From assembly GCA_045657665.1 (NCBI GenBank), contig JAZOTN010000030.1:38364-102363 (forward strand): a stretch of 64,000 bases of DNA. Direction: 5' to 3'. Both the position numbers and the translations under genes were made by a program. Numbering within the stretch: position 1 is the stretch's first letter; each line of letters begins with the position of its first letter. The notes below the pieces were generated by a model that was not told the origin of the DNA, made no database searches, and saw nothing but the letters and a program-made list of their open reading frames with translations. Below are positions 40,164 through 60,234 of the stretch, one piece after another. The DNA is from Lachnospiraceae bacterium (lineage in GTDB: Bacteria; Bacillota; Clostridia; Lachnospirales; Lachnospiraceae).

Positions 40164-40232
40164 TATATATCTTAAAACCTTGCGTAATATTTCGCTTATT
40201 GGTGTAATTAATGAAGAAAGAGAGGTGAAATT

Positions 40233-40538
40233 ATGGCAGTGATCAGTCCCGTTTCGGGTTTAAGAAACTATAATACAGTGTTAGACAAAGTGGAATACGG
40301 TTCCCCTGTCTATCTGACTGTGAATGGACGCGGCAGATACGCCATTCGGGATTTAGATACCGTTTTTTCGGATGTACCTAAGGCATCAAGTGACATAGAA
40401 CTCACACATCAATACCTTGATGATTTGCAGGATAAAGTAGAGGAAGTGGCAAAACGCCCTGAGGCGCGACTATATGAGGATTTTGTTTCTCATAGAGGGG
40501 GATTAAAACTATTTCTTGTGATACTTTCCGGATTATGA
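40233..40538 (+). CDS. Phd/YefM-family type II antitoxin-like protein (no adjacent toxin gene)
   Basis: N-terminus ISPVSGLRNYNTVLDKVEYGSPVYLTVNGRGRYAIRDLD matches the Phd/YefM fold signature. The hydrophobic tail LKLFLVILSGL is atypical. Confidence 0.6.
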   Translation: MAVISPVSGLRNYNTVLDKVEYGSPVYLTVNGRGRYAIRDLDTVFSDVPKASSDIELTHQYLDDLQDKVEEVAKRPEARLYEDFVSHRGGLKLFLVILSGL

Positions 40539-40578
40539 TAGACTAATAACTGGAATCCAAGGGAATAAACGGTGTACC

Positions 40579-40730
40579 GCCGGGCTGAGATTGCCGTCTC
40601 GCCCGGCAGGGATGGTTGAATACAGCAACCACACGATACAGACAGGGTCTGCGGCACACGCAAACGTATTGTAGCATATTTTATATGCGTTTACAAAGTG
40701 TTTGAGTAGCCGCAGCACGTTGTTTTTTGT
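40579..40730 (+). other. Structured non-coding region (three hairpins, the last terminator-like)
   Basis: Hairpin 1: GCCGGGC-T-GAGA-TTGCCG-TCTC-GCCCGGC (40579-40607). Hairpin 2: GGTTG-AATACAG-CAACC (40614-40630). Hairpin 3: CTGCGGC (40649-40655) pairs with GCCGCAG (40709-40715), with inner CAAAC/GTTTG pairing, followed by TTGTTTTTT. No credible ORF. Confidence 0.4.
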
Positions 40731-40857
40731 GTCCGACTTTAAGGAGCGGGTACAGGTGTGGAAACATGCTTGTACCCGCTCTTCTTGGATTCTTCTAAAA
40801 GTGTGAATTGAATAGTGTCAGATACAGGATTACAACGTGGCGGAAGGAGGAACTGTG

Positions 40858-43800
40858 ATGAAGAAGATGTGGAAAAGATTTTTGACGGCGGCAATTTGTT
40901 GTGCATTTTTTGGGGCGCAACTCGGATCAGAGCGGATTCTGGCAACGGAGAATGAAAGTGAAACTGTAACCGAAGACGACTCATTGCAGGATGATGGGCT
41001 TGCCGTAGAGGAGACAGAAGATAATGAGAATAATAGCGTGGGTGAGGCGCAAGCGCAGGAAGAAAGCGGGCATGAGGATGACTTAGAAGAGATTCAGGTG
41101 GATTCCGTAGGACGTGGCTCGGTAAGCATGTCAGAGTCGGAATATAACAGCAAAATGAATGCATTTATTTCGGACGGGAGATGGTGTAATGGAAGAGCTT
41201 GGGGCTATTATAAAGAGCCGGAGATGGTGTCGAGGGAGCGCAGCGGTATAGGGTGCTTTGCATATGCATGTGATTTCAGTAAATATATGTACGGTATTGA
41301 TAACTATACGGATGGTGAAGCTTATACAGATATAAATGCTATTCGAACAGGTGATGTGATTCGTGCTCCGGGACATACGTTTGTTGTGCTGTCAAGGAAT
41401 GGGAATAATCTATATACAGCAGAGGGAAATTATGGTCTTACCAATCCATCGGTTTCAATCAGAAACCCAGGATACCAGATCATTGGAGAGTCTTTTTACA
41501 ATCCAAATTCCAGGGAATATTCGACACTGGAAATGGGTTACCATTTTGTAAACGTCACTCAAAACAATTTCAAATACAGCGTTGACAAAGTCGAAGGAGG
41601 ACGTGGTACCGTACATCTCGTCGGGTGGGTTTTTGATGATGTGAATATTTCAAAATCAATACAGATCCATGCATATATCGATGGGGGACCGGGTTCCGGG
41701 GCAGCAGGGTACGCGATTGATGCAAATGTGGCACGGACGGATGTGGATGCTGCCTACCATTGCGGTGCGTTTCACGGGTTTGATTATGTGATTCAGGGGA
41801 TAAGCAGTGGAAATCATGTAGTGCAGCTGTTTGCGAATGATCAATATAATGGTACAAGCAAGAAAATAGGGGAGTATTCGGTGAGCGTTGCCACACCGAA
41901 TGTTTTTAAATATGGCGTAGAGAAGGTTGAGGGAGGACGTTGCTCGATACGACTTGCCGGGTGGGTTTTTGATGATGCAAATATCTCAAGGTCAATACAG
42001 GTCCATGCCTATATAGACGGAGGACCGGGCTCCGGGGCGGAAGGGTACGCAATTGATGCAAATGTAGCGCGGACAGATGTGGATGCTTCCTATCATTGCG
42101 GTGCGTTTCACGGGTTTGATTATGTGATTCAGGGGATAAGCAGTGGAAATCATGTAGTGCAGCTGTTTGCGAACGATCAATATAATAGTACGAACAAAAA
42201 AATAGGAGACTTTTCAGTAAGCGTTGTCGCGCCTCCTGTAATGCGGGATGGAGAAGGTGCCGGGCAGACTGTTCCCGATGGCGACTATCAGATCCAGCTT
42301 GCTGCGTACAATGGAGAATGGACACTTGATGTGCCGGGCGATACAGCGGCAATCAGAAATGGGACAAATGCAGCTATATGCAAAGGTTTCAACAGAAAGT
42401 ATGATGTATTCACTGTGAAATATCTGGGAAATGGCTATTACAATATTCTTCATAAGGGTTCCGGAAAATGCCTCGACATGGGGAGCAGCCTGAAAAACGG
42501 TGGGAATGTATACTTTTATGATAATGGCGGAATAGGACATCTGAATCAACAATGGTCTATATCAAAGGATTCGGACGGATGGTTTCGGATTCGGTCACGA
42601 TGGAGCGGGTTATATCTTGATGGCGGTGGAGATAATTATAATGTGCACCAATGGGAAGGGAAGGAAAGCATTGCAAATCAGAAGTGGAAGTTCCTTTGCA
42701 GTGTAAAATCGGTATCCCTGAATCAGTCAGCAATTTCCTTGAATGTGGGGGAAACGCAGGCTCTGACAGCCACAGTTCTGCCGGATGACGCTTCAAATAA
42801 GAGGGTTTCGTGGATTAGTGCAAATCCAGCAATTGCGACGGTAGACAGTATGGGAAAGGTGGTTGCAGTCAAAAAGGGGAAGACTACTATCACAGTAAAA
42901 ACCGAGGACGGCGGCTATACCGGGACCTGCGCGGTGACAGTTACAGAGAAGCAAAGCGGCATGCCGAATCCGACGACAAATGAAAAAGTAACGGAAATTG
43001 CGCTAAGTCAGGCGGCGGTTTCGATCTACACGAACGAAAATGAACAGAATGCAGTAACACTGACTGCGTCTGTGCTTCCGGAAAACGCATCCAATAAAAC
43101 GCTTGCATGGACATGTGCAAATCCTCAAATTGCATCGCTCTCTGTGGACGAATCAACCGGGAAAGCAACAATCACAGCGGTTTCGAATGGGAAAACGAAA
43201 GTGACGGTAAAAGCAACAGACGGAAGTGCGAAGACAGCCGTTTGTGATGTCACGGTGTCCACAAAAACAGAGGGGATTTCCCTATATTGGGCATCCGGAA
43301 AAACCTTGACAGAAATAGGGGCAGTATCGCTGGCAGAGGGGAAAACCGGGACTCTGAAAGTTGTTCAAAATCCGCTTGGATCGTCAACTGTTCGGATGAT
43401 CTGGTTTTCTTCCGATGCTTCGGTTGCAACAGTTTCGCAATCAGGGTTGGTTTCGGCTAAATCGAACGGAGTCGCTACAATCGAAGCTGTCAGCGAAGAT
43501 GGAGAATATAGTGCGACATGTACCGTAACGGTCTATGAACCGGTCACATCCATTAAGCTCGGAAAAACTGCCTTGAAGATTGGCGAAGGGGATAGCGCGT
43601 TAATCCCTGTAACTGCGGTATTACCGGAAACGGCAACAAATCAGGAAATTGTATGGAGCAGCAGCAACGAAGACGTTGCAACGGTAAGCTCGGAGGGAAT
43701 GGTTACGGCAAAACAGCTTCCAACGGGGAAGCAGACTGCAACGGCAACTGTTACGGCATTGGCAGCGGATGGAAGTGGGAAAAGCGCAAAATGCACGGTG

Positions 43801-45432
43801 ACGGTTGGAAAAGCGGTTTCATCACTTGTGATTGCACCCAAATCGGGAGGCAATCAGCTTGCAAAAGGGAAAACAATGTCCTTGGTAGCGACATTTCAAC
43901 CGACAAATCCCTTAAATAAAACTCTTACATGGGCGAGCAGTGATGAGAATGTTGCGGTGGTCAGTAAAGCAGGCGTCGTGAAGGGCATTGGAGCAGGTAC
44001 GGCAACAATTCGTGCCGTCAGTGAGGCGGGAGAAAAAGGTGCTTCCTATACTGTGCGGGTATATGTTCCGGCAACGGGAATCAAGTTGAATCAGAGCAAC
44101 ATCATTCTTGGCGCCGGGAAAAGCTTTTCTCTTCAGGCGACAACCTCACCCGCGGATGCGTCCGGCTCGTCGATTACGTGGACAAGCAGTGACGAGTCGC
44201 TGGTAACAGTGGATGGAAACGGAAGGGTGACAGCAAATGCGATTCCGCAGGGAAAAAAGAGCGCATCGGCAAAAATCACGGCAACACTTCTTTCTGACGG
44301 CGGAATCAAAAAAGCAGCCACCTGTTCTGTTACAGTAAAGCCGGAGATTGGCGTTACGGCAGTAAAACTGAATAAAACCAGCCTGAAGTTGGGGGAGGGG
44401 AGCGTTTACACGCTTTCTACGTCAGTGTTGCCGGTTACCGCGGATAATACTGCTATTATCTGGAGTACAAGTGACGAAAGCGTTGCGAGGGTGAGTCAGG
44501 ACGGAGTGGTTACGGCGGGGACGGTTCCGCAGGGAAAGAAAACCGCAACGGCAAAAATAACCGCGACGGCAGCAGACGGAAGCAAAAAGGCGGCGTCCTG
44601 CACCGTTACTGTGGGAAACGCGGTTACGGCGCTTGCGATTACAAACGGAAACGTAAGACTTGCCGAGAAAAAGACACTTACACTGAAAACCGTTTACAAC
44701 AGCGGAGACAAAAATACGCCGGTAAACACAGGGCTGATCTGGACAAGTAGTAATGAAAATATAGCAAAAGTCAGCGCAAAAGGAGTGGTAACGGCAGTCG
44801 GAAACGGTACAGCAACAATCACTGCGACATCTGAGGAGAGCCTGGCAACCGGAAGCCAAAAGAGCGCTTCTTGCATGATTACATCTTATGTTCCGGTTTC
44901 AAAAGTGGCACTGAATCGAACCAGTGTGTCTATAGGAAAAGGGAAGACGATTACACTGCAGGCATCTTCTATTCTTCCGGCAAATGCGGCGGATAAGACA
45001 TTAGTGTGGAGTAGCAGCAATTCAAGCATCGCATCGGTAGACAATGCAGGAAAAGTGACGGCGAATGGGGTCGGCACGGCACGTATTACTGTAACAGCAG
45101 CGGATGGAAGCAAAAAAAGCGCTTCCTGTACTGTGAAGGTGCTTGGACGTGTCAGTGAAATTTCTATTGCGGAGACCCGGGGTGGAATTACAAAGAAAGC
45201 AGACGGTTCCTATACCTTAAGCATCAAGAAAGGAAGGACGATGACAGCAAAAGCCGTGGTGTCACCATCCAACGCAGTGGATAAAACGGTTTCCTATCGA
45301 AGCAGCAATCCCTCTATCGCAACTGTCAGCGCTTCGGGACAAATTAAAGCGGTCGGCAATGGAACGGCTGTGATTACCGTGACATCCTCTGACGGGGGAT
45401 ATAAAGCTAAATGCACAGTAACGGTGGAATGA
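40858..45432 (+). CDS. Very large secreted surface protein: signal peptide, Cys/His hydrolase-like domain, 2 x 112-aa repeat, ricin-type lectin, about ten Big_2 Ig-like domains
   Basis: Signal peptide MKKMWKRFLTAAICCAFFGAQLG. GIGCFAYACD...APGHTFVVL is a papain-fold-like Cys/His pair. QxW motifs NQQWSI and NQKWKF indicate a ricin B domain. Repeated ~85-90-aa units (ATVLPxxAxNKxxxWxSSNxxxATVxxxGxVTAxxxGxAxIT) indicate Big_2 domains. I see no LPXTG motif or choline/SLH anchor. Confidence 0.8.
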   Translation: MKKMWKRFLTAAICCAFFGAQLGSERILATENESETVTEDDSLQDDGLAVEETEDNENNSVGEAQAQEESGHEDDLEEIQVDSVGRGSVSMSESEYNSKMNAFISDGRWCNGRAWGYYKEPEMVSRERSGIGCFAYACDFSKYMYGIDNYTDGEAYTDINAIRTGDVIRAPGHTFVVLSRNGNNLYTAEGNYGLTNPSVSIRNPGYQIIGESFYNPNSREYSTLEMGYHFVNVTQNNFKYSVDKVEGGRGTVHLVGWVFDDVNISKSIQIHAYIDGGPGSGAAGYAIDANVARTDVDAAYHCGAFHGFDYVIQGISSGNHVVQLFANDQYNGTSKKIGEYSVSVATPNVFKYGVEKVEGGRCSIRLAGWVFDDANISRSIQVHAYIDGGPGSGAEGYAIDANVARTDVDASYHCGAFHGFDYVIQGISSGNHVVQLFANDQYNSTNKKIGDFSVSVVAPPVMRDGEGAGQTVPDGDYQIQLAAYNGEWTLDVPGDTAAIRNGTNAAICKGFNRKYDVFTVKYLGNGYYNILHKGSGKCLDMGSSLKNGGNVYFYDNGGIGHLNQQWSISKDSDGWFRIRSRWSGLYLDGGGDNYNVHQWEGKESIANQKWKFLCSVKSVSLNQSAISLNVGETQALTATVLPDDASNKRVSWISANPAIATVDSMGKVVAVKKGKTTITVKTEDGGYTGTCAVTVTEKQSGMPNPTTNEKVTEIALSQAAVSIYTNENEQNAVTLTASVLPENASNKTLAWTCANPQIASLSVDESTGKATITAVSNGKTKVTVKATDGSAKTAVCDVTVSTKTEGISLYWASGKTLTEIGAVSLAEGKTGTLKVVQNPLGSSTVRMIWFSSDASVATVSQSGLVSAKSNGVATIEAVSEDGEYSATCTVTVYEPVTSIKLGKTALKIGEGDSALIPVTAVLPETATNQEIVWSSSNEDVATVSSEGMVTAKQLPTGKQTATATVTALAADGSGKSAKCTVTVGKAVSSLVIAPKSGGNQLAKGKTMSLVATFQPTNPLNKTLTWASSDENVAVVSKAGVVKGIGAGTATIRAVSEAGEKGASYTVRVYVPATGIKLNQSNIILGAGKSFSLQATTSPADASGSSITWTSSDESLVTVDGNGRVTANAIPQGKKSASAKITATLLSDGGIKKAATCSVTVKPEIGVTAVKLNKTSLKLGEGSVYTLSTSVLPVTADNTAIIWSTSDESVARVSQDGVVTAGTVPQGKKTATAKITATAADGSKKAASCTVTVGNAVTALAITNGNVRLAEKKTLTLKTVYNSGDKNTPVNTGLIWTSSNENIAKVSAKGVVTAVGNGTATITATSEESLATGSQKSASCMITSYVPVSKVALNRTSVSIGKGKTITLQASSILPANAADKTLVWSSSNSSIASVDNAGKVTANGVGTARITVTAADGSKKSASCTVKVLGRVSEISIAETRGGITKKADGSYTLSIKKGRTMTAKAVVSPSNAVDKTVSYRSSNPSIATVSASGQIKAVGNGTAVITVTSSDGGYKAKCTVTVE
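41566..42237 (+). repeat. Direct tandem duplication, 2 x 336 bp, inside the surface-protein gene
   Basis: The period is exactly 336 nt. An 80-nt tract is identical between copies (41758-41837 and 42094-42173), while the flanks have diverged. Confidence 0.9.
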
Positions 45433-45489
45433 GAAAAAAACATTTGTACCCGTTTTTTGGATTCCGTAATTAACAAGGAGAGAAAGCAG

Positions 45490-47022
45490 ATGAAAAGAAA
45501 TATTTGTCCAGTTGTTCTGAGTGGGATTTTAGCACTTACATTTTCGGCATGTGGCAGTACGATAACGCAGACTGAGTCTCAGATTTCTACCGAGACGGAA
45601 AAGGCAGCGACGACAGAAAATGATGAAACAATTACGAATACTGAATCAGAGAAATCTGAATCAGAAGAACCGGAATCAGAGGATGCTGACGATCAGAATG
45701 CAGATGTAAGGAAAGAAGTAGAAGAGTTACTTGATTTGAATATTGATGAATATGAAAGCACAGGGCATGTGTGCGGAGGGGTGATTCCTGTTTATAATGA
45801 ATCGAAATGGGGGGCACTAAACTATAACGGGGTAGAGATCATTCCTTGTGAATATGATGGATATATTTGTGGACCTAATAAAGATGGGTATATTGTGATG
45901 TTCAAAGGTGATGAAAATGCGGAATATACACTTTTTGACAATACTGGGAAAACGATATATCAAGGACCGGAGCATATTGTGGCAAGTAATGGATTTTACA
46001 TTATTGCACGTGGAGACGAAGAGAATGGTCAGACCAATACGTTCATAGATTATTATCACTATGATGGAACGCTCGTTACATCTGTCGACACGCAATCGCC
46101 GGGGGATTGGGGTGTTAGTTGGGAACCGCACGGTTTCTATGATGGATTGTCGCTGGTGGAAAGGAATATGGGAAGTGTAGTTTATTCCAGAAGCGATCAG
46201 ACAGCAGTTATGCCATTTGATGTGGGATTTGTGAATGAGGGAGGCAGTGTAGATTGGCATGACGGAGATGGATTCGACGAGACAGATTATTCTGAAGTTA
46301 TGGGGTATGAGGAATATACCAGTCAAGCTACCGCGGCAAACAGTACGAACAGTAATACCGGTCAAGCGTATGGGGCGATGAGTGTTGCAAACGAGTCCAT
46401 ACCGATGAATTCGCTGAATAATGGATATTACCTGGCATATTATGAGTTTTCGGGAGAACGCGTGCTGCGAGATAAGGATCATATCGTCGCGGCTGTTATG
46501 ATGGATATGATTACGTTGCAGGATGATGCGCTCATATATGGTAAGGATAGCGTTTCGGCAGCGGGTAATAGTTTCCCGATATATGGCAGCGACTCTGAAA
46601 CGTACTACGATGAGAATCGCATCCTCGCATACCCGTCGGACGGTGATTGGTATTATAATTATGGATCAAAAATACTGATGTATATCAATGGCAAATATGT
46701 ATTAATGGATCTCCTGTCATCTGAAGAATTAAAATATAATGTTTTTGATTATTGTGAGATGAGCGATGAGAATTATTGGCTTGTACAAAGTGGGGATCGG
46801 TGGGGATATATTGATCACGAAGGAGAAATAAAAGCACTTTTCGAGGACGCCGGAGCCTTTCATAATGGAGTCGCTCCGATAGTTGAAGGTAAGATGGCAT
46901 ATTTGATAGACGAGAATTTTGAGAAGGTTCAGGAACTCGGGGAGGCGGACAGTGTATATTGCGCGGGGGAAATCTTTGTGATTAACAAGGACGGAAATAA
47001 AAGGCTGTTTGCATTGAAATAG
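45490..47022 (+). CDS. WG-repeat (KWG-like) lipoprotein
   Basis: Lipobox LALTFSAC, an acidic linker, and WG-repeat units (KWGALNYNGVEIIPCEYD; RWGYIDHEGEIKALFEDAGAFHNGVAPI). ATG 45490 is preceded by AAGGAGAG. Confidence 0.75.
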   Translation: MKRNICPVVLSGILALTFSACGSTITQTESQISTETEKAATTENDETITNTESEKSESEEPESEDADDQNADVRKEVEELLDLNIDEYESTGHVCGGVIPVYNESKWGALNYNGVEIIPCEYDGYICGPNKDGYIVMFKGDENAEYTLFDNTGKTIYQGPEHIVASNGFYIIARGDEENGQTNTFIDYYHYDGTLVTSVDTQSPGDWGVSWEPHGFYDGLSLVERNMGSVVYSRSDQTAVMPFDVGFVNEGGSVDWHDGDGFDETDYSEVMGYEEYTSQATAANSTNSNTGQAYGAMSVANESIPMNSLNNGYYLAYYEFSGERVLRDKDHIVAAVMMDMITLQDDALIYGKDSVSAAGNSFPIYGSDSETYYDENRILAYPSDGDWYYNYGSKILMYINGKYVLMDLLSSEELKYNVFDYCEMSDENYWLVQSGDRWGYIDHEGEIKALFEDAGAFHNGVAPIVEGKMAYLIDENFEKVQELGEADSVYCAGEIFVINKDGNKRLFALK

Positions 47023-47209
47023 GGATGCAAATATGCTTTCATAGAGCGCCTTGAAAAATACGGAGTTACAGCGAAGAAGCATCACCGCGCTGCATATAAG
47101 AAATCTTTACAGATTCGCTGTGGCAACAACGACATACGACCTATATTAAGAAAAAACTGCTTCTTTCGACACGGGAGGAGCGGCTCGTCGAAAACAGGAT
47201 TTTATATGG

Positions 47210-47551
47210 ATGCATGGCGTGTCCATGTACCTTGGAAAAGAATTGACCATCAAGGCGCTGCTTTGTGCGTATGCATTGCTGAAAAATGGCGGTTATATGA
47301 AGTATGATTATCTGATTATGACGGAATCCATGCGTCGTGTGTTGGCAACGCAAGGGTGGCCGAAGGGTCGCGGGGAGATGGATATTTTTCCGAATGCGCA
47401 GGAGGCGATAGAACGTGCGCGGGAAGTGACGTCGGTTGTGAATGACACCCTGAAAGGGAATGGTTTTTTTGACATTGATGACATTCAGACGACATTGGTC
47501 GAGCCATGGGGCGCAACCAGTGTCAGAGTGACGATGCGGAAGTACGTCTGA
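47210..47551 (+). CDS. Hypothetical small protein (113 aa)
   Basis: ORF with balanced protein-like composition but no recognisable motif. The start is uncertain. Confidence 0.35.
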   Translation: MHGVSMYLGKELTIKALLCAYALLKNGGYMKYDYLIMTESMRRVLATQGWPKGRGEMDIFPNAQEAIERAREVTSVVNDTLKGNGFFDIDDIQTTLVEPWGATSVRVTMRKYV

Positions 47552-47694
47552 GTTCAGGTTTAACCGAATGTCCCAATCATTGATCCAACTGGAAACAGGC
47601 ACATTGAAAACTTCATATTGGAAGGCGCAGAATGTCTTGTCGGAAGACGAGAAACATGGTATCTTATAAGCATATAACATCGAAAGGAGCAGTG

Positions 47695-47988
47695 ATGGAT
47701 CATATAGCCCTTGCAAAACTTTCTTTTAAGAAGAATCGTGAAATGATTACACACTCTGAAATTATCGAATCGGACGGTACGGCAAGGATCAAAGTTTATT
47801 TTGAGAAAATCAACGATGCTGGAGATGATTTCGATTGTATGACGGTTCTATATCCTGACATCAAAGTAATTGAAAACAATGGATATTCTGAGCAGGAGAT
47901 TTCTCAAAGAATAGATGAGTTTCGGAGATGGGGAGAGCTTGCTATGGCTGCAGAAATGGAGCGGATTGAAGAACGATGCCCAGCATAG
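47695..47988 (+). CDS. Hypothetical small protein (97 aa), upstream partner of the DUF4160 gene
   Basis: ATG 47695 has RBS AAAGGAG 5 nt upstream. The 3' end overlaps the DUF4160 start by 13 nt. Confidence 0.45.
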   Translation: MDHIALAKLSFKKNREMITHSEIIESDGTARIKVYFEKINDAGDDFDCMTVLYPDIKVIENNGYSEQEISQRIDEFRRWGELAMAAEMERIEERCPA

Positions 47989-48257
47989 GTGAAATATTCG
48001 GGTATAAGATTTATTTTTACAGCAATGAGAATGATCCACTCGAACCGGTGCATGTTCATATGGGAAAAAACATGTATGATCAGGCTGCAAAAGTGTGGAT
48101 TTGCTCTGACGGCAGTATTGAGATCGCTTATAACCATTCCATTCCGGAACGGCAGATGGAAAAGATTGTAGACGCATTATCAATCATTTCTGAAGACATT
48201 TGCAATACATGGTTCCAATATTTTGACGATATTTCTTACTTTGACAGAACAAAATAA
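47976..48257 (+). CDS. DUF4160-family small protein
   Basis: IFGYKIYFYSNENDPLEPVHVHM is the characteristic DUF4160 N-terminal motif (f.i.iy..dH.PPHfH-like). Confidence 0.65.
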   Translation: MPSIGEIFGYKIYFYSNENDPLEPVHVHMGKNMYDQAAKVWICSDGSIEIAYNHSIPERQMEKIVDALSIISEDICNTWFQYFDDISYFDRTK

Positions 48258-48286
48258 GAGTTAGCAAGTATCAGGATTCAGAGAAG

Positions 48287-48315
48287 GCGCTTTCCATATG
48301 GAGGGCGCTTTTTTG
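48287..48315 (+). terminator. Intrinsic terminator after the small-ORF cassette
   Basis: GCGCTTTCC-ATAT-GGAGGGCGC (two G-U pairs) followed by TTTTTT. Confidence 0.7.
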
Positions 48316-48356
48316 TGTGTTGTTTTGACTCGAAGTGTTGATGGAGGAATAAGGAA

Positions 48357-50057: not shown

Positions 50058-50080
50058 GGGCAGGAGGTATACTAAAGCGG

Positions 50081-50586
50081 ATGTTTTGCGGAAAATGCGG
50101 AAATCAATTACCGGAAGGAGCTCAGTTTTGCACAAAATGCGGGGCAAGGCGACTGAGCGAAAATGTTGACAGCAACCAAATTGAAGAAAAGCATGCGGGC
50201 GGTACTGTGATTGGAACACCAATATGGAAAACAGTAATGATTGGCGTAGCAGAGGGGCTTGCAATTTGTGCCATAATATTACTGATTGTGGTTTTGTTAT
50301 TTACTGGTGTTTGAATTCGCTTTGGTATAAACGGTTCATGGGTTGCACAGATTCTGCATGGACAGATAAGGAGGGAGAGGTTGTTTATTTTGATGATCTG
50401 GTTACGAATTTCTGGTGGAGCCTGATGGATTCCTGTTCTTTAAAGAAAGAAAATGGCACGTATAAACTGTATGTTACACCATTCAACGGCTCGACAATGA
50501 TTTTTGATGTGATGGTTACGGATAAGGATCATGTTTTACTAAAATACGAAGATGGCAATGAAATACATATGGAAAGTGTGAAATGA
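50081..50586 (+). pseudogene. Zinc-ribbon / TM protein gene interrupted by a frameshift near 50300-50315
   Basis: The 50081 frame encodes MFCGKCGNQLPEGAQFCTKCG plus a TM and stops at 50314. A protein-like continuation (NSLWYKRFMGCTDSAWTDKEGEVVYFDD...HMESVK) runs in another frame to 50586. Confidence 0.5.
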
Positions 50587-50598
50587 AAGGAGAGGTTC

Positions 50599-51141
50599 AT
50601 GATGGAGGAAAGGAAAAGCAGAACGAGAATTGGAGTATCCGTAAATTTTCTGGCAATGATTGCCTGGCTAAGTGTAATCGGCGGAGAGTGGATACCGTTC
50701 TTGGTGGCAGGTGCAATATTAGTGTTGGAAAAGGATGGATGGCTGAAAAAGCAGATGATAAAGGTACTTGTTCTGGCAGTGGCTGTCCGAGTCGGTAATT
50801 ATCTTTTGTTCACACATTTGATTGATCTGATTTTCCCACAATGGTATTTGAACGCGGGTGTTTTAATATTAAAGATCATCGTGTATCTTGCGGAGGATGC
50901 ATTGTGGATTGTACTTGCTTTAAGAGCATGGAAGAGGACGCCAAGTTATACTTCGTTGGATCATTTTGCGGAAGGCTGCCTGGAAACAGAATATATCTCG
51001 GGGACCTCGACGGATACAGAGATGACTGGTAGTAAGACCCCGACTGTATCAGTGGCATCTGCAAACGTATGTCCGAATTGCGGAAAACTAATCAGCGATG
51101 AAATGGATTTCTGTGTAAATTGCGGAACAAAGGTAAGATAA
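50599..51141 (+). CDS. Polytopic membrane protein with a C-terminal zinc ribbon (180 aa)
   Basis: About four TM helices, then CPNCGKLISDEMDFCVNCG at the C-terminus. RBS AAAGGAGAGG. Confidence 0.7.
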   Translation: MMEERKSRTRIGVSVNFLAMIAWLSVIGGEWIPFLVAGAILVLEKDGWLKKQMIKVLVLAVAVRVGNYLLFTHLIDLIFPQWYLNAGVLILKIIVYLAEDALWIVLALRAWKRTPSYTSLDHFAEGCLETEYISGTSTDTEMTGSKTPTVSVASANVCPNCGKLISDEMDFCVNCGTKVR

Positions 51142-51198
51142 AAAAATATGCGCACGGAACTGCGGATACCAAAAAGATATTGAGTGAGGGACAAAGGT

Positions 51199-52845
51199 AT
51201 GTTCTGTCATAAATGTGGAAATCAAATCCCGGAGGATGCCCTTTTTTGCCCGAAATGTGGGACAGAGATACTTCGAGTAAGGGGGGACAAGATCGGACAT
51301 CCAAAACAAACGGAATCTGTGTTAGGAGAAACCGAGGATAGAAACGGTGGAAAAGCGTTTTTTTCCATGCCGAGGAAATTGAGAAGACATGAATGGATTC
51401 TTTTAGTAGGGTGTCTGTCTGCGGTAGTTGTTTTTATTATTCTTATAGGGATTGGCATCGACATTATGAAGCAAAGAAGCGGCACTGATGAATCTTTGGT
51501 AGATTCAATGTCTGCATATACGGATTCTGAAGAATTAAACGGCGTGCTGCCACCACTGGCAATGCCCGAAACAAATACACTGGTAGATCCGCAGACAGAA
51601 ACGATTCTACAAGATTCTAAAGATACAATAAGGTCAGAGGAAGAGAATCTTACAGAAAAGACTGCATTTACTATGTACGATCTGAGCTATGTAGAAGATT
51701 TTTCAGAAAAACATGCATGGGTACGATATTGGGATGTTGATAAGCTTTATTGTGCTTTGATGAATGAATCTGGAGAAGCTATTTTTAGCGAATGGGCAGG
51801 ATATGATTGGAGAAGGATGGGGACAATGAAAAATGGGATAACTTGGTATACCTATGATGATGGAACAGATGATCCCCCTTTTGTAATCATAAACTCGCAA
51901 GGGGAAATACTGTTTGATAGTGAGAGAAATGAAGAAGCGGGGGAAGAACTATATCTTGTTGGAGTATCCAATGGGAGATTTGTCGTAGAGAAAAACAAGC
52001 GTAACTTTTCGGAGAATGTAACAACCATTTTTACGATGGATGAAAAAGGAAATGTTATAAATCCTGAAACAAAGATTGAAAATTATGCTTGGGAATGCAG
52101 TGGAACACCGGTTGGAAATGGCCATTTAATTTATATTTATGGCACTGGGGTTTATATCGTATACAATATAGATACGAATGAGCTTATATATATGCCACGA
52201 GATTTTTTTAATAGTATGGCATATGATGAAGGTTTTTTTATATCAAATTTTGGAAAAGTAACATCAGAAGCTGTTTTTGCAAGTCAAGAAACATATGATG
52301 CTTTACTATTTGCGGATGGATACGCATGGGACTTGGGAGAAGCAAATGTGTGGCAGAATAATAACACTGTAGGGGAGGGCTTGTATTATTTTGGTGGAAA
52401 TGGTAATGTCCCGTCGGGCTATTATGATCTGACAGGAAAATGGCAATTTGCACCGATAATCCCAAATGGTGGGAAAATAGTGGAAACATTTGCGTTTTCG
52501 GGAGAATATGCGCCGATTGAGTTAGAAGGAATGGATGGAGAAAAATATATTTCCATTATTGATAAAACAGGAAATTTACAATATGAACCAGTGAAGCAAA
52601 ACGATGTAGATGGACATTGGCATGGATATGTACTTGTCAGTAATAACGGTAAACACAATATCGTATTAACTCCAGATGGCGAATCAAAACAGATAGGATT
52701 AGCAGATCTTTCAGAAATGGGTGACGAAGCATATATTGAAGGGTATTTGAGTGGTGGTTTTTTTATGGATACATACGAGCACGTATATCGTAGTATTGAC
52801 GGGAAAAATACTATACATGAAATAAAAGTGGGACAGATGTACTAA
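51199..52845 (+). CDS. Zinc-ribbon / single-pass membrane protein with a WG-repeat-like ectodomain
   Basis: MFCHKCGNQIPEDALFCPKCG, TM WILLVGCLSAVVVFIILIGIGI, and WG-repeat-like units (FSEKHAWVRYWD..., FSGEYAPIELEG...KYISIIDKTGNLQYEPV). Confidence 0.72.
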   Translation: MFCHKCGNQIPEDALFCPKCGTEILRVRGDKIGHPKQTESVLGETEDRNGGKAFFSMPRKLRRHEWILLVGCLSAVVVFIILIGIGIDIMKQRSGTDESLVDSMSAYTDSEELNGVLPPLAMPETNTLVDPQTETILQDSKDTIRSEEENLTEKTAFTMYDLSYVEDFSEKHAWVRYWDVDKLYCALMNESGEAIFSEWAGYDWRRMGTMKNGITWYTYDDGTDDPPFVIINSQGEILFDSERNEEAGEELYLVGVSNGRFVVEKNKRNFSENVTTIFTMDEKGNVINPETKIENYAWECSGTPVGNGHLIYIYGTGVYIVYNIDTNELIYMPRDFFNSMAYDEGFFISNFGKVTSEAVFASQETYDALLFADGYAWDLGEANVWQNNNTVGEGLYYFGGNGNVPSGYYDLTGKWQFAPIIPNGGKIVETFAFSGEYAPIELEGMDGEKYISIIDKTGNLQYEPVKQNDVDGHWHGYVLVSNNGKHNIVLTPDGESKQIGLADLSEMGDEAYIEGYLSGGFFMDTYEHVYRSIDGKNTIHEIKVGQMY

Positions 52846-52902
52846 AGAACAAGCACCCTTTCTAAATGATGAAAATGCTTTTTTTGATGGAGAAATATAG
52901 AA

Positions 52903-54006
52903 ATGTTCTGCCGTAAATGCGGAAATGAAATCCCGGAAGGCGCTATATTTTGCGTGAAATGTGGGACAAGAATAAATGATGACAACATAGAATCCTATCG
53001 GAAATCCAACATGGGAGTTTGGATTGCGCTGACGGCTTGCATTACTGCGGCGGTGGTTCTTTTGATCGTAATTGCAGCCATTATTATCCGAGGAAATCAA
53101 AGGGAGGATTATGAAATCGTTCATGAATTGGTGGAAATCCCTGAAACGAGAGAGGAAGAGGAGGCTATTAAAGGCGAGACCGAGGAAGCAAGTGAGGCAG
53201 ATCAACCGGAGATTACTTCAGATGAAGAGACTGCTCAAAATGAAAAAATGGATACATCGGAACGCCCGGGGTTTATTCCGCTAAATACCCACTCGAAGAT
53301 TACGGATGTGGAAAAGGTCGTGAATGATATTGATATGGTCTGTGGTCTTGTGGATTCGGGGAAGTATGATGGAATCGGACCGAACAACTATTATAGGGTA
53401 TGGCAAGAGGATGGTGGATATATAGATCGGCTGATAAAGACCGGCCTCGGGACAGGAAATGATTCGGAACTGGATTCTTTGATGGAGAAATACGGGTATA
53501 TCGTCTATCAGATATTGTTCTATTATGATAATGAAGCGAGCGGAATGGATGCAATCTCGGATGGCCCAATAAAAATAGTGGCTGATATAGATGGGAGAAA
53601 CTACCAGTATTATTTCTTTTTCAATAATTTGATCCGAAGAGTGGCGCCGGAGGCGACAACCGATAATCCGGAAACGAATGAGTTCTTGCAGGAGCTGTAC
53701 CGGATTGGTTTTGAAAAACGTTGGGATTATAATGATTCGAATCGCGTAAGCACGGATAATAATACGGAGAATAACACTGAAACGAACACGGCTCTATATA
53801 AGATTGTTGTTTCGGCCTATGATAATTTTGTGAATTTAAGAACCGGACCCGATACGGCTTTTGAGATCTTGACCCCAATCTATAATGGAGTGGTGTTGGA
53901 GATCCAAGACGCTGTGGAGACAGAAAAGGGGTGGTGGATGAAAACTACATTTCAGGGCAAAACAGGATGGATTGCAGCATCACAGGTCACCATACTGCAG
54001 GAATAA
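52903..54006 (+). CDS. Zinc-ribbon / single-pass membrane protein with a C-terminal bacterial SH3 domain
   Basis: MFCRKCGNEIPEGAIFCVKCG, a TM and an acidic linker. The C-terminus VNLRTGPDTAFEILTPIYNGVVLEI...GWWMKTTFQGKTGWIAASQV is SH3_3-like. Confidence 0.72.
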   Translation: MFCRKCGNEIPEGAIFCVKCGTRINDDNIESYRKSNMGVWIALTACITAAVVLLIVIAAIIIRGNQREDYEIVHELVEIPETREEEEAIKGETEEASEADQPEITSDEETAQNEKMDTSERPGFIPLNTHSKITDVEKVVNDIDMVCGLVDSGKYDGIGPNNYYRVWQEDGGYIDRLIKTGLGTGNDSELDSLMEKYGYIVYQILFYYDNEASGMDAISDGPIKIVADIDGRNYQYYFFFNNLIRRVAPEATTDNPETNEFLQELYRIGFEKRWDYNDSNRVSTDNNTENNTETNTALYKIVVSAYDNFVNLRTGPDTAFEILTPIYNGVVLEIQDAVETEKGWWMKTTFQGKTGWIAASQVTILQE

Positions 54007-54164
54007 TATGTTTTTTCACAGAAATCATGGTACATGGGAACAATAAAACCGGATGATTTTAATGAGGATGCTTTTTTAACCAATATGAAAAGGCAAATCG
54101 TGATCTGGTTGTCCGGTATGTAAAGGGAAATTACTAAAAAAAGAAAATGGGAGGAACTCAAAAA

Positions 54165-54689
54165 ATGGATAATGAAAAAGTTGTTGACATTCGTCCAGAA
54201 GGTGGAATACGTTTTAATGGGTTTGCTGCTACACTGCAAATCATTGGCGGAGTATTATGGTTAGGAGGATTAATCCTCGGCATCGTGACGGGGTTAGGTC
54301 TTGGCAATGTGTTTAACTACTTTGGAGGGTCTTCTTTTTCATGGGGATCAGCTCTTACGATATGGGTTGCTGCATTCGTAGCAGGGCTGGTTCCATTTTG
54401 CTTTGCGGAAATTATCAGTCTTTTGCAGAAGATCGCAACACAGCATTATCGTGTGGGTGAAGAGGTACAACTACGGGAGACTGTGGCGAAGGAAGCAGAA
54501 AAAGCACAAATGCCGGAGAACACGGAAGCAAAAAAGGTACAAGTACCCACACAGCCTGTTGTAACGGAAATAACGAAGAGTGAAAAGACAAAAGAAGAAT
54601 CTCCATACCTGTTTTGCCCAAAATGCGGGAAGAAGGTGGAGCAACAGAATTCCATTTTCTGTGCTGGGTGTGGAACAAGACTGGAGTAG
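54165..54689 (+). CDS. Membrane protein (2-3 TM) with a C-terminal zinc ribbon
   Basis: TM segments, a charged linker, then FCPKCGKKVEQQNSIFCAGCG. ATG 54165 is 8 nt after GGGAGGA; 54147 is the alternative start. Confidence 0.68.
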   Translation: MDNEKVVDIRPEGGIRFNGFAATLQIIGGVLWLGGLILGIVTGLGLGNVFNYFGGSSFSWGSALTIWVAAFVAGLVPFCFAEIISLLQKIATQHYRVGEEVQLRETVAKEAEKAQMPENTEAKKVQVPTQPVVTEITKSEKTKEESPYLFCPKCGKKVEQQNSIFCAGCGTRLE

Positions 54690-54717
54690 ATGCTCCGTAA
54701 AGCAGAGGCGATAGAAG

Positions 54718-56223
54718 ATGTATTGTAAGCGATGCGGAAAAGAACTGAAAGAGGATATGCGCTTTTGCGTATATTGCGGACAGGATCAACAGGGAAAGGT
54801 TCTGCCTGATGCTCCGGACGGGGTACCGAAGCGGAAAGAGATGCGTTCGGAAAAGAAAGAAGAGATTCCGATATGGATCCCGGTGCTTCTTGCTATAATT
54901 CTGGTGGTATGCGCGCTGGTTGTGCTGGTTCTTTTTTTGCATAGCAGAAGTAAGGATAGCGACGAACCTGCTGGAGAGCTTGTGGAAACATTGGAAGAGA
55001 GGATAGAGCAGGAGACGGAACGGGAAACAGAAACGACGGAAAAGGAGAAAGAGACGAAAGAGAAACTTTCCGGAAAAGGAATAGCGGAAGCGGCATCGGG
55101 AAACGATGGGGATGCATTCTTGATCAATTCGGATACTGTCGCGGATTACTCGACCTGTCTTGACCCGAAGCAGTATCAATACTACGATTCCGGGATCGTT
55201 TTTTTTAGTTTTTATTATCCGGTAAATCTTTTTAATCGTGTGGAGGTGGACGAAGAAGACAATTCCATTGTGATTGGGAACCAAATTGCAAAAAATGAGC
55301 AGTCGGTGCAGTTTTACGCATCAGATGGAACAGAGGCGTTGTTTCAGGTCATGAACCGCATGGAGGCAGGTGGAGTGGATCCGAAGTTGGGAGAAATATA
55401 TGCAGCGGAGAACCAGCAAAGATTTCATGGTGAAGGTGTGGGTGACCTGCATTATGAGAATGGATACGGTTGTTTTTTCCTGAGTGGATATCAGAACGGA
55501 AATGTGATTTATGAATTCGTGAACATGAATAACAACCAGATCTATCGCTTTTTTTCAATTACACCACCATGGACAGATATCAATGATCGCGCAATGAAAG
55601 AGTATGTGACAACCTGCATGGAGCGTATGACAGGATTTGCATATTCCAAAGAGGTTCCGACATATGAGGAATTTCTGGAGAAAAATGCGGAGCGTTTTCG
55701 TGATTCCGAGTGGGCTTCAGAGACGAAGGGGATCATGCTGTCGCCGGATGTGGTTGATTTTGTTTACTCTACATTCGGAGAAGCAAAGTCAAAGTATACC
55801 ATGGTGGATTCGGAATTCACGCATGCGGGTCTGTATCAATCTACGGCAATAGAGCTGGGAGTTTCCGGGCAGTATGATGGTTATCACAACGATACTTGGA
55901 TCATGATGGATTCTGACGAATGTACCGAAGCGATTGGAAAAGTAAGCGCGATTTTTCCCGGCTATCAGCAGGCAATGCCGATAGAGAAGTTTGCCGCAAG
56001 TGTTTATGCAGACGGAGAAAAATCAGGCTCGGCGGTTCTTCGCTATGAGCCGGAAGGATATATGCCATATGGCGGAGAGTACTATGAAATATACATCCCG
56101 ACCAAATTGCCGAGCGGGATGGGAGTGACGATGACATTGATTGTTTCAACGAGTGACTTTTCCGGGACGCTGGATCCGTCTAAGACGGTTATTTTGGTGA
56201 GGGATTATGTCCCGTTGTCATAG
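54718..56223 (+). CDS. Zinc-ribbon / single-pass membrane protein with an unknown ectodomain (501 aa)
   Basis: MYCKRCGKELKEDMRFCVYCG, TM IWIPVLLAIILVVCALVVLVLFL, an acidic linker (ETERETETTEKEKETKEK), and a ~370-aa unassigned domain. Confidence 0.72.
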   Translation: MYCKRCGKELKEDMRFCVYCGQDQQGKVLPDAPDGVPKRKEMRSEKKEEIPIWIPVLLAIILVVCALVVLVLFLHSRSKDSDEPAGELVETLEERIEQETERETETTEKEKETKEKLSGKGIAEAASGNDGDAFLINSDTVADYSTCLDPKQYQYYDSGIVFFSFYYPVNLFNRVEVDEEDNSIVIGNQIAKNEQSVQFYASDGTEALFQVMNRMEAGGVDPKLGEIYAAENQQRFHGEGVGDLHYENGYGCFFLSGYQNGNVIYEFVNMNNNQIYRFFSITPPWTDINDRAMKEYVTTCMERMTGFAYSKEVPTYEEFLEKNAERFRDSEWASETKGIMLSPDVVDFVYSTFGEAKSKYTMVDSEFTHAGLYQSTAIELGVSGQYDGYHNDTWIMMDSDECTEAIGKVSAIFPGYQQAMPIEKFAASVYADGEKSGSAVLRYEPEGYMPYGGEYYEIYIPTKLPSGMGVTMTLIVSTSDFSGTLDPSKTVILVRDYVPLS

Positions 56224-56662
56224 CTTGTTGGCAGAGGTAAAAAAGGCGAGAGGTTTGTTGAAATATAACGATTGCAAAAAGCATGATGTAGAAAATGAAT
56301 CCTGATATGAAGTCTGGTTACTTTATTTCAGGGATTATTATGTCGGAAATTCTTTCTTTACAAGATAGTAGAACCATGCTATAGTGGCTCTATCAATTCG
56401 AAGATGGTATCAGAACGTTTCGTTCATATTTTCCACGAATTACGATAACAGAATGAAAGCAACCTAAGATCCTTTCGTAATGCACTGCATGTATCGTCTT
56501 ATGGTCTTATCATCTCGAATTGAAATTCAAAAACAAAGGAGATGATGCAAGGAGGAGGACGTGATTTGGGGTGTTGGGGCTGTTTTTGTGTAGAGACGGA
56601 AATTGCCCGTGGATGTGCTTGCATGGGGATGCAGGCGTGTTTATAATGAAAGGAGAAGTATT

Positions 56663-57577
56663 TTGAGTGGGGTTAACAATGAGTATAAGGATCGTCTGTT
56701 TGGAGCGATATTCGGACGGACGGAACACCGAAAGTGGACGCTGAGTTTGTATAATGCGATCAACGGCTCTTCGTATGAGGATCCGGAGGAGATCGTAATC
56801 AATACGATGGATGACAGCGTTTACATGGGAATGAAGAATGATGTCTCGTTTATCCTGCAGGGACGGATCAGTATTTATGAGCAACAGAGCAGTTTCAACC
56901 CGAACATGCCGTTGCGTGAATTTATGTACGCAGGAAGATTGTACGGAAAGCATGTGCGGGAGCAACAGCAGAATGTCTATGGAGAAGCGCTGATTCATCT
57001 TCCGGTTCCGAGACTGGTAGTTTTTTATAATGGATCGCGGAACAAAAAGAACCAAATTCTTAGGCTGTCAGATGCATTTCCGGATGAGATTAAAAAAGAG
57101 TCGGACATCGAAGTCAAGGTTCGGATGATCAACATCAATTACGGACATAATCGAGAGTTGATGAAAAAATGTAAGCCACTTGCGGAATATGCATGGTTTG
57201 TGGATATGATTCGAAAAAACATGGATACGATGGAGATTGAGGCCGCGGTGGATAGGACAATTGATGCCATGCCGGAGGACTATGAAATCAAGAGCTATCT
57301 GATGGGCAATAGAGAGGAGGTCAGGATGTATTTCATAACAGAATATGATGAAGAAGAACACATGAAGCTTGTGCGGCGGGACGCCAGAGAAGAAGGAAGA
57401 GAAGAAGGCATAGAACAAGGCATAGAACAAGGCATAAAAGGCTTTATTGAGGACAAACTGGAGGACGGCATCCCGATTGATAAGATTCGGGAAAAGCTGA
57501 AGAGGATCTATCAGCTGCCCCCGGAGAAGATTGAAGAATACCTGGAAAAATACGCGGCAAATATGGCTGCATCATAA
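56663..57577 (+). CDS. Rpn-family recombination-promoting nuclease / putative transposase (PD-(D/E)xK)
   Basis: NEYKDRLFGAIFGRTEHRKWTLSLYNAINGSSYEDPEEIVINTMDDSVYMGMKNDVSFIL is the characteristic N-terminus. The C-terminal EEGREEGIEQGIEQGIKG repeat is typical of Rpn/YhgA-like proteins. The TTG start at 56663 follows AAAGGAG. Confidence 0.75.
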   Translation: MSGVNNEYKDRLFGAIFGRTEHRKWTLSLYNAINGSSYEDPEEIVINTMDDSVYMGMKNDVSFILQGRISIYEQQSSFNPNMPLREFMYAGRLYGKHVREQQQNVYGEALIHLPVPRLVVFYNGSRNKKNQILRLSDAFPDEIKKESDIEVKVRMININYGHNRELMKKCKPLAEYAWFVDMIRKNMDTMEIEAAVDRTIDAMPEDYEIKSYLMGNREEVRMYFITEYDEEEHMKLVRRDAREEGREEGIEQGIEQGIKGFIEDKLEDGIPIDKIREKLKRIYQLPPEKIEEYLEKYAANMAAS

Positions 57578-57629
57578 GCGTGATCGCAGGTTTTCCGCCA
57601 AGACAGCAGCCGGTGAAGGAAAGAGGTTT

Positions 57630-58520
57630 TTACACCTCCACATTATCCGGGACGCAGGCGCGGAGCTCGACCTTGGGGATGGTGCAGAAGATGTCCACAA
57701 GCTCCTTGTCCAGTTGAGTTCCCGCGACCTCCTTCATAATCTCGATGGCTTCTTCATGTGCCCGCGGCGGCTTGTAGGAACGCCGCATGGTGATGGCGGC
57801 ATAAGTGTCGGCGACGGCTATGATCTTTGCGGGATAGGGGATCTGGTCACCCGGAATGCAGTAATAGCCGGTTCCGGTCAGGTTTTCATGGTGGTATTCA
57901 ATCCAGGGAAAGATCTCCTGAAAGGACCCTAAGGGATGCAGGATCTCCACTCCGAGACGCGGATGGTCGCGCATGATTTCCCATTCCTCGTCGGACAGAG
58001 GAGCGGGTTTATTAAGGATTTCCTCCGGAATTCCGAGCTTTCCCACATCATGCATGAGCGACGCGAAATCCAGACTGAGACGGTTGATCTGACTCTGTGT
58101 AGAAAAAGGGAGGCGGTTATAGAGCAGCATGGTCACATTACGAACGTAACGGCTGTGCCCCTTCAGATTCGGATCTCTTGCATCCACCACACTGATCAGG
58201 GTTTCCGCAACGTTCAGACAGTTTTCCTTGATAGTTCTTGTCAGGCGGAAGAGCAGCGTCAGGATGATCGAAACAAAGATGCTGCCGCCGAGCAGTACGA
58301 AACCCATGACAAGATTGGGCCTGTCATGCACGGCGATAAAAATATAACCTCCCAGGAAAAAGATCAGTAGAAACAGCGCGATTCGTTCCCAGATCCGGCT
58401 TTGCATGTCGCCGGAGGAGAGGACATCCTTTGTCTTTTTCAGGAAACGACCGTATCGAATGATGTTTGAAACCATCAAAGCGGCTCCTGTAGCGATCATC
58501 AGATAAATAATAATTTGCAT
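57630..58520 (-). CDS. Membrane-anchored HD-GYP-type phosphohydrolase (variant GYP motif)
   Basis: Two N-terminal TMs and the HD motif LMHDVGKLGIPEEIL. The second motif is HHENLTGTGYY instead of the canonical HHExxDGxGYP. Confidence 0.75.
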   Translation of the reverse strand: MQIIIYLMIATGAALMVSNIIRYGRFLKKTKDVLSSGDMQSRIWERIALFLLIFFLGGYIFIAVHDRPNLVMGFVLLGGSIFVSIILTLLFRLTRTIKENCLNVAETLISVVDARDPNLKGHSRYVRNVTMLLYNRLPFSTQSQINRLSLDFASLMHDVGKLGIPEEILNKPAPLSDEEWEIMRDHPRLGVEILHPLGSFQEIFPWIEYHHENLTGTGYYCIPGDQIPYPAKIIAVADTYAAITMRRSYKPPRAHEEAIEIMKEVAGTQLDKELVDIFCTIPKVELRACVPDNVEV

Positions 58521-58790
58521 CTTTTCTTCCCCGTAAAAATAATAAAACTGCCATGAAAAGAACCATAAAGATTATAGCACAGTTCCGGTGGTTATGTTAT
58601 GCGGATATTATCCGTTTTTTTTGGCAGCGGATTTTCTGGGATCTTTTTTTATACGGATTGGCGCAATTTCATTGCATTCGGGACAAGGTAAACGGCAATT
58701 ATTTGCGCGAAGAAATATAACTGACCATGGACAAAGAATACGAAACCGTGTAAAATGGTTTAGGATTATGAGAATTAGGAGGGACTTTAT

Positions 58791-60157: not shown

Positions 60158-60160
60158 CGG

Positions 60161-60224: not shown

Positions 60225-60234
60225 GAATAAAATA

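Follow-up and report, generated by a model that had tools for sequence, protein, structure and literature searches.

In the 64,000-nt stretch of Lachnospiraceae DNA analysed here (the window), the core genes tgt and yajC lie 18.6 kb apart, as a preliminary description made from the letters alone had stated: tgt ends at 40163 and yajC begins at 58791. We read the spacer between the two genes as an integrase-free recombination hotspot in which an 18.4-kb mosaic island has accumulated by stepwise accretion, and put the probability of this reading at roughly 70%. The island is real and mosaic, and it is of a familiar kind and not a new kind of element. Comparison with other contigs shows that its conserved core forms one colinear module, with a predicted leader RNA, a lipoprotein, a cassette of toxin–antitoxin type, an array of zinc-ribbon membrane proteins and a putative Rpn/RpnS pair. 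The tgt–yajC region as a whole is a mosaic built in several steps, not by one insertion.

One genome per species was scanned, giving 80 Lachnospiraceae loci with Tgt 75–84% identical; 79 of these are long enough to tell, and in 75 of them yajC starts at most ~300 nt from tgt. Exceptions in other genera carry different accessory genes after tgt:

L014, FAD oxidoreductase and AAA-ATPase/PDDEXK_9 protein between tgt and yajC
L053, 614-aa membrane protein between tgt and yajC
L080, 1353-aa Big_2/DUF6273 protein between tgt and yajC

Direct adjacency is also found in three of the five nearest relatives, and the other two have small, differing inserts (Tgt identities at the amino acid level):

L094, Tgt 94.6% identical, response-regulator gene after tgt
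L084, Tgt 90% identical, tgt–yajC–ROK with a spacer of 40–190 nt
L083, Tgt 88% identical, 1.6-kb small-gene cassette after tgt, including a VapB-like gene and a truncated PIN gene
L081, Tgt 86–87% identical, tgt–yajC–ROK with a spacer of 40–190 nt
L082, Tgt 85% identical, tgt–yajC–ROK with a spacer of 40–190 nt

The order tgt–yajC–ROK is common to L081–L084, with the insert of L083 placed between tgt and yajC, and at least six different contents occur at the site (the window, L083, L094, L014, L053 and L080). These comparisons show an ancestral state of tgt, terminator, promoter and yajC, and the adjacency in 75 of 79 species and in three of five nearest relatives supports the earlier view of the region as an insertion. 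Neither the same genes between tgt and yajC in close relatives nor a uniform composition, which together would point to an ancestral arrangement, was seen. The window species is rare, and the 90%-identity cluster of its Tgt has four members; exact searches with its Tgt and YajC gave no match.

The junctions were defined by comparison with L094, the closest relative. Homology continues for 29 nt past the tgt stop, up to window position 40192, and in L094 this position is joined directly to 20 nt that are identical to window positions 58571–58590. The locus is divided as follows:

39018..40163, plus strand, tgt, left flanking core gene (PF01702, E=1e-155; 88–95% amino acid identity to nearest relatives)
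40164..40192, left half of the original tgt–yajC spacer (blastn homology to L094 extends to 40192)
40193..58570, window-specific inserted segment of 18,378 bp (defined by comparison with L094)
58571..58790, right half of the original spacer (20 nt common to L094, terminator hairpin, yajC promoter)
58791..59222, plus strand, yajC, right flanking core gene (PF02699, E=5e-30), followed by the ROK kinase gene as in relatives

L094 diverges 20 nt beyond the junction, which indicates two independent breakpoints at most 20 nt apart. The right spacer half comprises the 220 nt before yajC and holds a plus-strand hairpin (58601–58615) plus a T-run, probably the former tgt terminator, and the yajC promoter (TGGACA-N17-TAAAAT, 58728–58756); homology to L083 and L084 resumes at ~58705. 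The interval of 40164–58790 given in the preliminary description is thus real, and its window-specific part, for which an empty site has now supplied the exact ends (40193 and 58570), is slightly shorter. Neither a target duplication nor terminal inverted repeats mark the junctions, no flanking direct or inverted repeats were found around the island, no tRNA lies in the window and no integrase domain occurs among the island open reading frames (ORFs) scanned. The profile scan of the ORFs and the tRNA and repeat searches therefore agree with the earlier statement that integrase, tRNA and flanking direct repeat are missing.

All island genes are on the plus strand except the last one. In the list below, GC3 is the GC content at third codon positions, TM stands for transmembrane, L020 is another Lachnospiraceae genome and L086 is one of the contigs with a homologous island described further on:

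40233..40538, plus strand, g101, remnant of a Phd/YefM-type antitoxin, 101 aa (N-terminal similarity to the L020 antitoxin; GC3 0.35)
40550..40796, plus strand, predicted structured leader RNA of ~245 nt (conserved copies, compensatory changes in two stems)
40837..45432, plus strand, giant secreted protein, 1531 aa (signal peptide; Pfam matches to 10 Big_2 domains and a ricin-type lectin domain; GC3 0.45)
45457..47022, plus strand, WG-repeat lipoprotein (PF14903, E=1.4e-6)
47210..48257, plus strand, small-gene cassette of g113, g118 and a DUF4160 gene (DUF4160, E=5e-15)
48357..50057, plus strand, zr566, zinc ribbon, TM helix and beta-propeller-like ectodomain, 566 aa (PF13240)
50081..50586, plus strand, disrupted zinc-ribbon gene, a pseudogene of a 164-aa protein (alignment to intact L086/L089 orthologues)
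50599..51141, plus strand, zr180a, multi-TM protein with C-terminal zinc ribbon, 180 aa (profile match; 51% identical to the L086 counterpart)
51184..52845, plus strand, zr553, zinc ribbon, TM helix and ectodomain, 553 aa (lowest-GC gene, GC3 0.30; no L086 counterpart)
52903..54006, plus strand, zr367, zinc ribbon, TM helix and SH3_3 ectodomain, 367 aa (profile match)
54147..54689, plus strand, second multi-TM protein with C-terminal zinc ribbon, 180 aa (46% identical to a 300-aa protein of L086)
54718..56223, plus strand, zr501, zinc ribbon, TM helix and ectodomain, 501 aa (46% identical to a 406-aa protein of L086)
56664..57577, plus strand, rpn, divergent Rpn-family PD-(D/E)xK gene (sub-threshold profiles and homologue family)
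57630..58520, minus strand, HD-GYP membrane protein (PF13487, E=6e-28; GC3 0.636)

The giant secreted Ig-domain protein, the WG-repeat lipoprotein, the small-ORF cassette and the HD-GYP protein of the preliminary description are all borne out by this list. Of its seven zinc-ribbon membrane proteins, PF13240 is found in all seven, and the set consists of six intact genes and one disrupted gene.

The composition of the interval departs from that of the window. In 500-nt windows the GC content is 0.441 in the interval and 0.505 in the rest of the window (Mann–Whitney p=1e-11), so that the sliding-window plot proposed earlier shows a lower and non-uniform composition; the hand counts of single lines given at the time were reproduced exactly (13/60 at 52201, 25/60 at 53041 and 39/60 at 20281). 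Against a GC3 of 0.591±0.032 in 26 upstream core genes, the island genes from g101 through the second 180-aa protein have values of 0.30–0.46, except g113, followed by 0.49 for zr501 and 0.52 for rpn, and core-like values are found for HD-GYP (0.636) and g113 (0.588). The shifts of the island genes amount to 3–9 standard deviations below the core and are heterogeneous inside the island, the composition of which is foreign, with HD-GYP and g113 excepted, yet not homogeneous.

Through a 96% identical homologue of zr566 (P0124), colinear low-GC islands (0.40–0.46) within DNA of ~0.51 GC were found on contigs L085–L088, L089 and L095, where they lie between a SpoIIE-phosphatase cluster and infC-rpmI-rplT. 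Common to these infC-site islands and the window, in order and with identities to the window in brackets, are a 79-aa ORF corresponding to the tail of rpn (78%), the leader, the WG lipoprotein (83% at the amino acid and 86% at the nucleotide level for the L086 gene), a g113-like gene, a two-gene cassette, zr566 (96%), the 164-aa gene, the 180-aa multi-TM zinc-ribbon protein (51%), the second multi-TM zinc-ribbon protein (46%), a YARHG zinc-ribbon protein and the 406-aa protein (46% to zr501). Compared with them, the giant Big_2 protein, zr553, zr367, g118/DUF4160, g101 and HD-GYP are found in the window only. The infC-site islands carry 2, 5–6 or 7 zinc-ribbon genes, their versions are 77–99% identical to each other at the nucleotide level, and they are themselves, as judged by these alignments, mosaics.

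Nucleotide identity between the window and the infC-site island reaches 91% over 48276–50750 and 86% over 45440–47039, and core genes of the window are 71–85% identical to those of the nearest relatives. Because the island segment is more similar than the core, and because no Tgt of at least 90% identity was found from the samples of the infC-site islands, a recent exchange of the 48276–50750 segment between lineages is likely. The ~5.8-kb module from the WG lipoprotein to zr180a (45440–51200) has no DNA match in phage or plasmid records, the WG lipoprotein has no match in JGI metagenomes and zr566 none in IMG/VR; a phage or plasmid origin is unsupported.

These comparisons bear on two other explanations of the region. 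If the arrangement were ancestral to the lineage, with the genes deleted in relatives and no insertion, the precise joining of the spacer halves in L094 could equally be a clean deletion, and the promoter element of the island cassette that L083 retains could be left over from a larger one. We consider this very unlikely, given that adjacency of tgt and yajC is the rule in the family and holds in most of the nearest relatives, that island GC3 falls so far under the core, that part of the island is closer to the island of another lineage (91%) than core genes are to those of the nearest relatives (71–85%), and that a gain would have had to be followed by several precise losses, each independent of the others. 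An assembly or binning artefact, with foreign low-GC DNA joined between tgt and yajC, would fit the abrupt composition change at the junctions and a source that is apparently a draft genome (Tgt lies on one 314-kb contig). This is extremely improbable: homologous low-GC islands in ~0.51-GC contexts are present in at least three independent assemblies, the spacer halves are retained exactly at both junctions, the segment contains a core-type gene (HD-GYP), and gene orientation and spacing are continuous.

The preliminary description had also suggested that an Rpn-type nuclease might have promoted the insertion. That rpn may belong to this family is suggested by its relatives, 18 of 38 close homologues matching TIGR01784 (best E=1e-14) and one matching RpnA, while the matches of the protein itself are sub-threshold: 25.3 bits for TIGR01784 (cut-off 52.1), at the C-terminus only, and 16.5 bits (E=0.006) for PF04754 (Transposase_31; cut-off 21). 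The family has 6,550 representatives. Among the homologues, D80 and Q95 never vary, and at least 90% keep E93. The start is probably the TTG at 56664, which is preceded by AAAGGAG, and homologues align from query residue 23–24. For the protein (rpn324) there was no PDB match by sequence, PADLOC gave noise only, and comparison with Lachnospira eligens megaplasmids returned only a partial match to a 'hypothetical protein'.

Published Rpn proteins are toxic defence nucleases for which evidence of transposition is absent, and the toxic RpnL nuclease has an intragenic antitoxin, RpnS, with hypervariable 4-aa repeats 8–20 residues past the RpnS start (Zhong et al. 2023, PMC10400941). The window gene has an in-frame internal GGAGG-N5-ATG at 57307–57319 (codon 239), from which an 86-aa RpnS-like product would be made, and four 4-aa repeats (REEG REEG IEQG IEQG) begin 19 residues after the internal Met. 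In L086 the repeats are fewer, and the same Met opens a stand-alone 79-aa ORF that shares 78% identity with the final 86 residues of rpn. This predicted internal start and its repeats match the published RpnS pattern. Like RpnL/RpnS, the window gene combines an N-terminal domain with conserved D...E-x-Q, an in-frame internal start, 4-aa repeats, a stand-alone small homologue in related loci and no flanking repeats; its sequence is distant from E. coli RpnA–E, its profile scores fall below the curated cut-offs, and its nuclease activity, toxicity and internal start are predictions. Because of the RpnS-like pattern and the lack of evidence for transposition (PMC10400941), rpn is more likely to be cargo, as an addiction or defence module, than the recombinase of the island, and a role for it in promoting the insertion is unsupported.

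The same gene is central to a further explanation, that of a single discrete mobile element which excises as a circle, has several integration sites and uses the Rpn nuclease as its recombinase. One module is indeed found at two chromosomal sites, with rpn at the island border. Only 43 nt separate the 3' end of rpn (window 57316–57621) from the leader segment downstream of it (window 40533 onwards) in the infC-site islands, and joining the ends of the low-GC core in the window would recreate this junction. Yet the rpn piece of L086 begins exactly at the internal Shine–Dalgarno sequence and ATG and is a stand-alone RpnS-like gene, not a breakpoint, and the predicted 5' fragment of rpn was not found at the other (right) end of the L086 island. 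Terminal repeats and target duplication are missing, the identities within the module, from 46% to 96%, argue against a single recent move, the true junctions are separated from the core by g101 and HD-GYP, and Rpn proteins are known as toxic defence nucleases and not as transposases (PMC10400941). We therefore give a single mobile element little probability.

For the stepwise accretion that we favour, the module would have entered through recombination without an element-encoded recombinase, either by double homologous recombination in the flanking core genes with DNA of a relative or by illegitimate joining. The giant Big_2 protein, extra zinc-ribbon paralogues and the HD-GYP gene would be later gains, and later remodelling would have included a cassette swap behind a conserved promoter and decay, as seen in the antitoxin remnant and one pseudogene. 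Many known hotspots contain no mobile element and owe their diversity to recombination in the core genes on either side (Oliveira et al. 2017, PMC5635113). Like these, the island concentrates accessory genes between two conserved core genes, has a rapid turnover of content with relatives that differ, is enriched in surface and defence functions, and comes without integrase, tRNA or recognisable mobile element; the signature of the hotspot model is raised recombination in the flanking core genes (PMC5635113), and the island is likened to it by content, in one genome. Classical genomic islands and integrative and conjugative elements at tRNA genes share with it the deviant GC, accessory surface genes and toxin–antitoxin modules, but the island has no integrase, tRNA, att repeat or conjugation gene.

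Several points weigh against this account. Collections hold one genome of the species, and gain and loss at the strain level are unobserved. The contigs of the closest relatives are short metagenome assemblies, and that of L094, at 1.6 kb, could be chimeric. The link between L083 and L090 comes solely from their shared sample, and the view that the infC-site organisms are not close relatives follows indirectly from finding no Tgt of at least 90% identity in their samples. The function of the array is wholly inferred, with a characterised homologue for no member.

With its junctions defined to the base, the locus exemplifies an integrase-free insertion hotspot in a lineage of gut Lachnospiraceae that has been little studied, and it shows a low-GC surface-protein module common to different chromosomal sites and lineages. 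Current ideas stand, given that surface and toxin–antitoxin islands at hotspots are expected; the possibly new items are a leader RNA without an Rfam family and head-sharing zinc-ribbon arrays, and nothing else. The island would supply a variable set of envelope proteins, made up of the zinc-ribbon proteins, the lipoprotein and the giant lectin/Ig-like secreted protein, and its addiction and defence genes (RpnL/RpnS-like, DUF4160 cassette) may help it persist.

The zinc-ribbon proteins are similar to each other in the first 60–90 residues only, which comprise ribbon, linker and TM helix. At the DNA level, a 5' head of ~85 nt in four array genes covers the ribosome-binding site and the zinc-ribbon coding sequence, and the database protein P0127 has a head that is 83% identical and a different ectodomain. 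Homologous recombination could plausibly use such shared heads to add or remove genes and to exchange ectodomains, and the array would grow and shrink via recombination between them. The predicted topology of the members is that of type II membrane proteins, in which a small zinc ribbon would face the cytoplasm and the domains outside would be diverse (beta-propeller-like, SH3). For zr566 the structure model has a predicted local distance difference test score (pLDDT) of 56 and its top fold matches are all beta-propellers; we assign the beta-propeller-like fold class to the modelled ectodomain with low confidence. The disrupted gene appears as two overlapping ORFs, 50081–50314 (77 aa) and 50224–50586 (120 aa). 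They are the halves of one 164-aa gene into which 12 nt carrying an in-frame TGA have been inserted and in which the loss of 1 nt has shifted the frame.

TcaA of Staphylococcus aureus (NCBIfam NF053815) and YARHG proteins have the same plan, in which a CxxC...CxxC ribbon at the N-terminus is followed by one TM helix and a C-terminal domain outside the cell. The match of the array to TcaA is local and weak (E=0.003, 16 bits against a cut-off of 550), with unrelated ectodomains, and unlike these proteins the array is a colinear, variable set of 2–7 paralogues with the head alone in common. We know of no description of such a head-sharing zinc-ribbon array.

The leader lies between g101 and the giant gene and has a terminator hairpin and U-tract at its end. 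Copies are found on L085–L089 and L093 (L085/L086 6442–6688; L089 5441–5688; L093 1–201); the leader is present in every infC-site island and one more metagenome contig, always 5' of the first lipoprotein or surface gene. Stem one shows compensatory changes (GGTTG/CAACC, GGCAG/CTGCC, GGTAG/CTACC), and the second stem with such changes is the terminator stem; with ~3 independent sequences, this covariation is suggestive. In addition, GGAAUCCAA at the 5' end of the leader is able to pair with UUGGAUUC, located after the terminator. A search of 38000–60500 gave no Rfam 15 match at E<=0.1, and a covariance model of the leader, run over the 1.4 Mb of loci compared, added no other copy. L092, one of two metagenome pattern matches, lies inside a high-GC flagellar locus and was rejected as a chance match. 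We regard the leader as a candidate new cis-regulatory RNA, and the surface genes are probably transcribed behind this terminator-containing leader.

Taken further, leader with terminator, lipoprotein, swappable cassette behind a conserved promoter and zinc-ribbon array could together form an undescribed, coherently regulated system of cell-envelope variation, which we regard as unlikely. If it were true, the leader would be a new riboswitch-like or attenuator element, head-mediated cassette exchange would diversify the array, and the unit would move between core-gene spacers.

The cassette itself gives an example of exchange. A promoter-like element at 47600–47674 (TTGTCG-N17-TATCTT, with TCATTGA repeats upstream) is conserved in L083 (10040–10153) and in L086 and L089 (~9060–9130), and the genes behind it differ: g118–DUF4160 in the window, VapBC in L086 and L089, and another small pair in L083, where that pair sits directly after tgt. 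This suggests, on the present alignments, that cassettes are exchanged behind a fixed promoter. In the window g118 probably starts at 47692, and a terminator (48281–48314) follows downstream of the cassette. Among the small genes of the tgt–yajC cassette in L083 there is also a GC-rich, apparently structured non-coding stretch (10900–11060).

The orphan antitoxin of the preliminary description is an orphan, and its residues 1–38 are Phd-like, being 61% identical to the Phd/YefM antitoxin of L020 (PF02604, E=7e-9), where a ParE toxin gene comes next. The ORF itself has no Pfam or NCBIfam profile match, antitoxin profiles included, and no toxin ORF lies 3' of it; without a toxin partner, g101 is read as a remnant.

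HD-GYP is, by its HD_5/HD-GYP domain, a predicted phosphodiesterase of cyclic di-GMP. Orthologues of the same length and 60–89% identity occur across Lachnospiraceae, and the gene is missing from the tgt–yajC interval in every relative compared. The 89% identical copy (P0130) comes from sample SRR32206278, the same sample as L083 (Tgt 88%), and lies on another contig with unrelated neighbours, its nucleotide homology to the window being limited to 57632–58533. As to whether the gene belongs to the core or to the island, a question raised at the outset, it is core by descent and composition, as far as orthologues and GC3 indicate, and was relocated or brought in with DNA of a close relative; its position is inside the window-specific segment.

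The gene for the giant protein is missing from the homologous infC-site islands, which implies a separate gain or loss. The N-terminal region of the protein contains a ~112-aa unit in two copies, and a 300-nt tandem duplication at 41568–42203, 86% identical, encodes both of them. Its N-terminal 460 aa have no significant Pfam or PDB-sequence match, and a single-sequence AlphaFold model of this part was unusable (pLDDT 30); as a guess, a papain-like Cys/His hydrolase domain might be located in it.

Upstream of tgt, a second window-specific block relative to L083 (35503–38058), of core-like composition, lies between the UDG gene and a gene for a 258-aa protein. It encodes a membrane-anchored protein of the clostripain family (Peptidase_C11, 35598–37295) and a membrane-anchored AhpC/redoxin-like protein (37314–38048).

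In relatives, the ROK gene is followed by a MatE gene on the plus strand and next by isocitrate/isopropylmalate dehydrogenase. Their place downstream of ROK is taken in the window by two genes on the minus strand (60235–63740), one for a 617-aa MatE protein fused to a HATPase_c_2 domain and one for a sodium:dicarboxylate symporter with an N-terminal extension of ~130 aa, and homology to relatives resumes at ~63863. Sub-threshold Rfam matches to miRNA families at 60153–60232 were rejected as spurious evidence of an RNA gene; the long hairpin found there, where the ROK and MatE genes converge, most likely terminates transcription in both directions.

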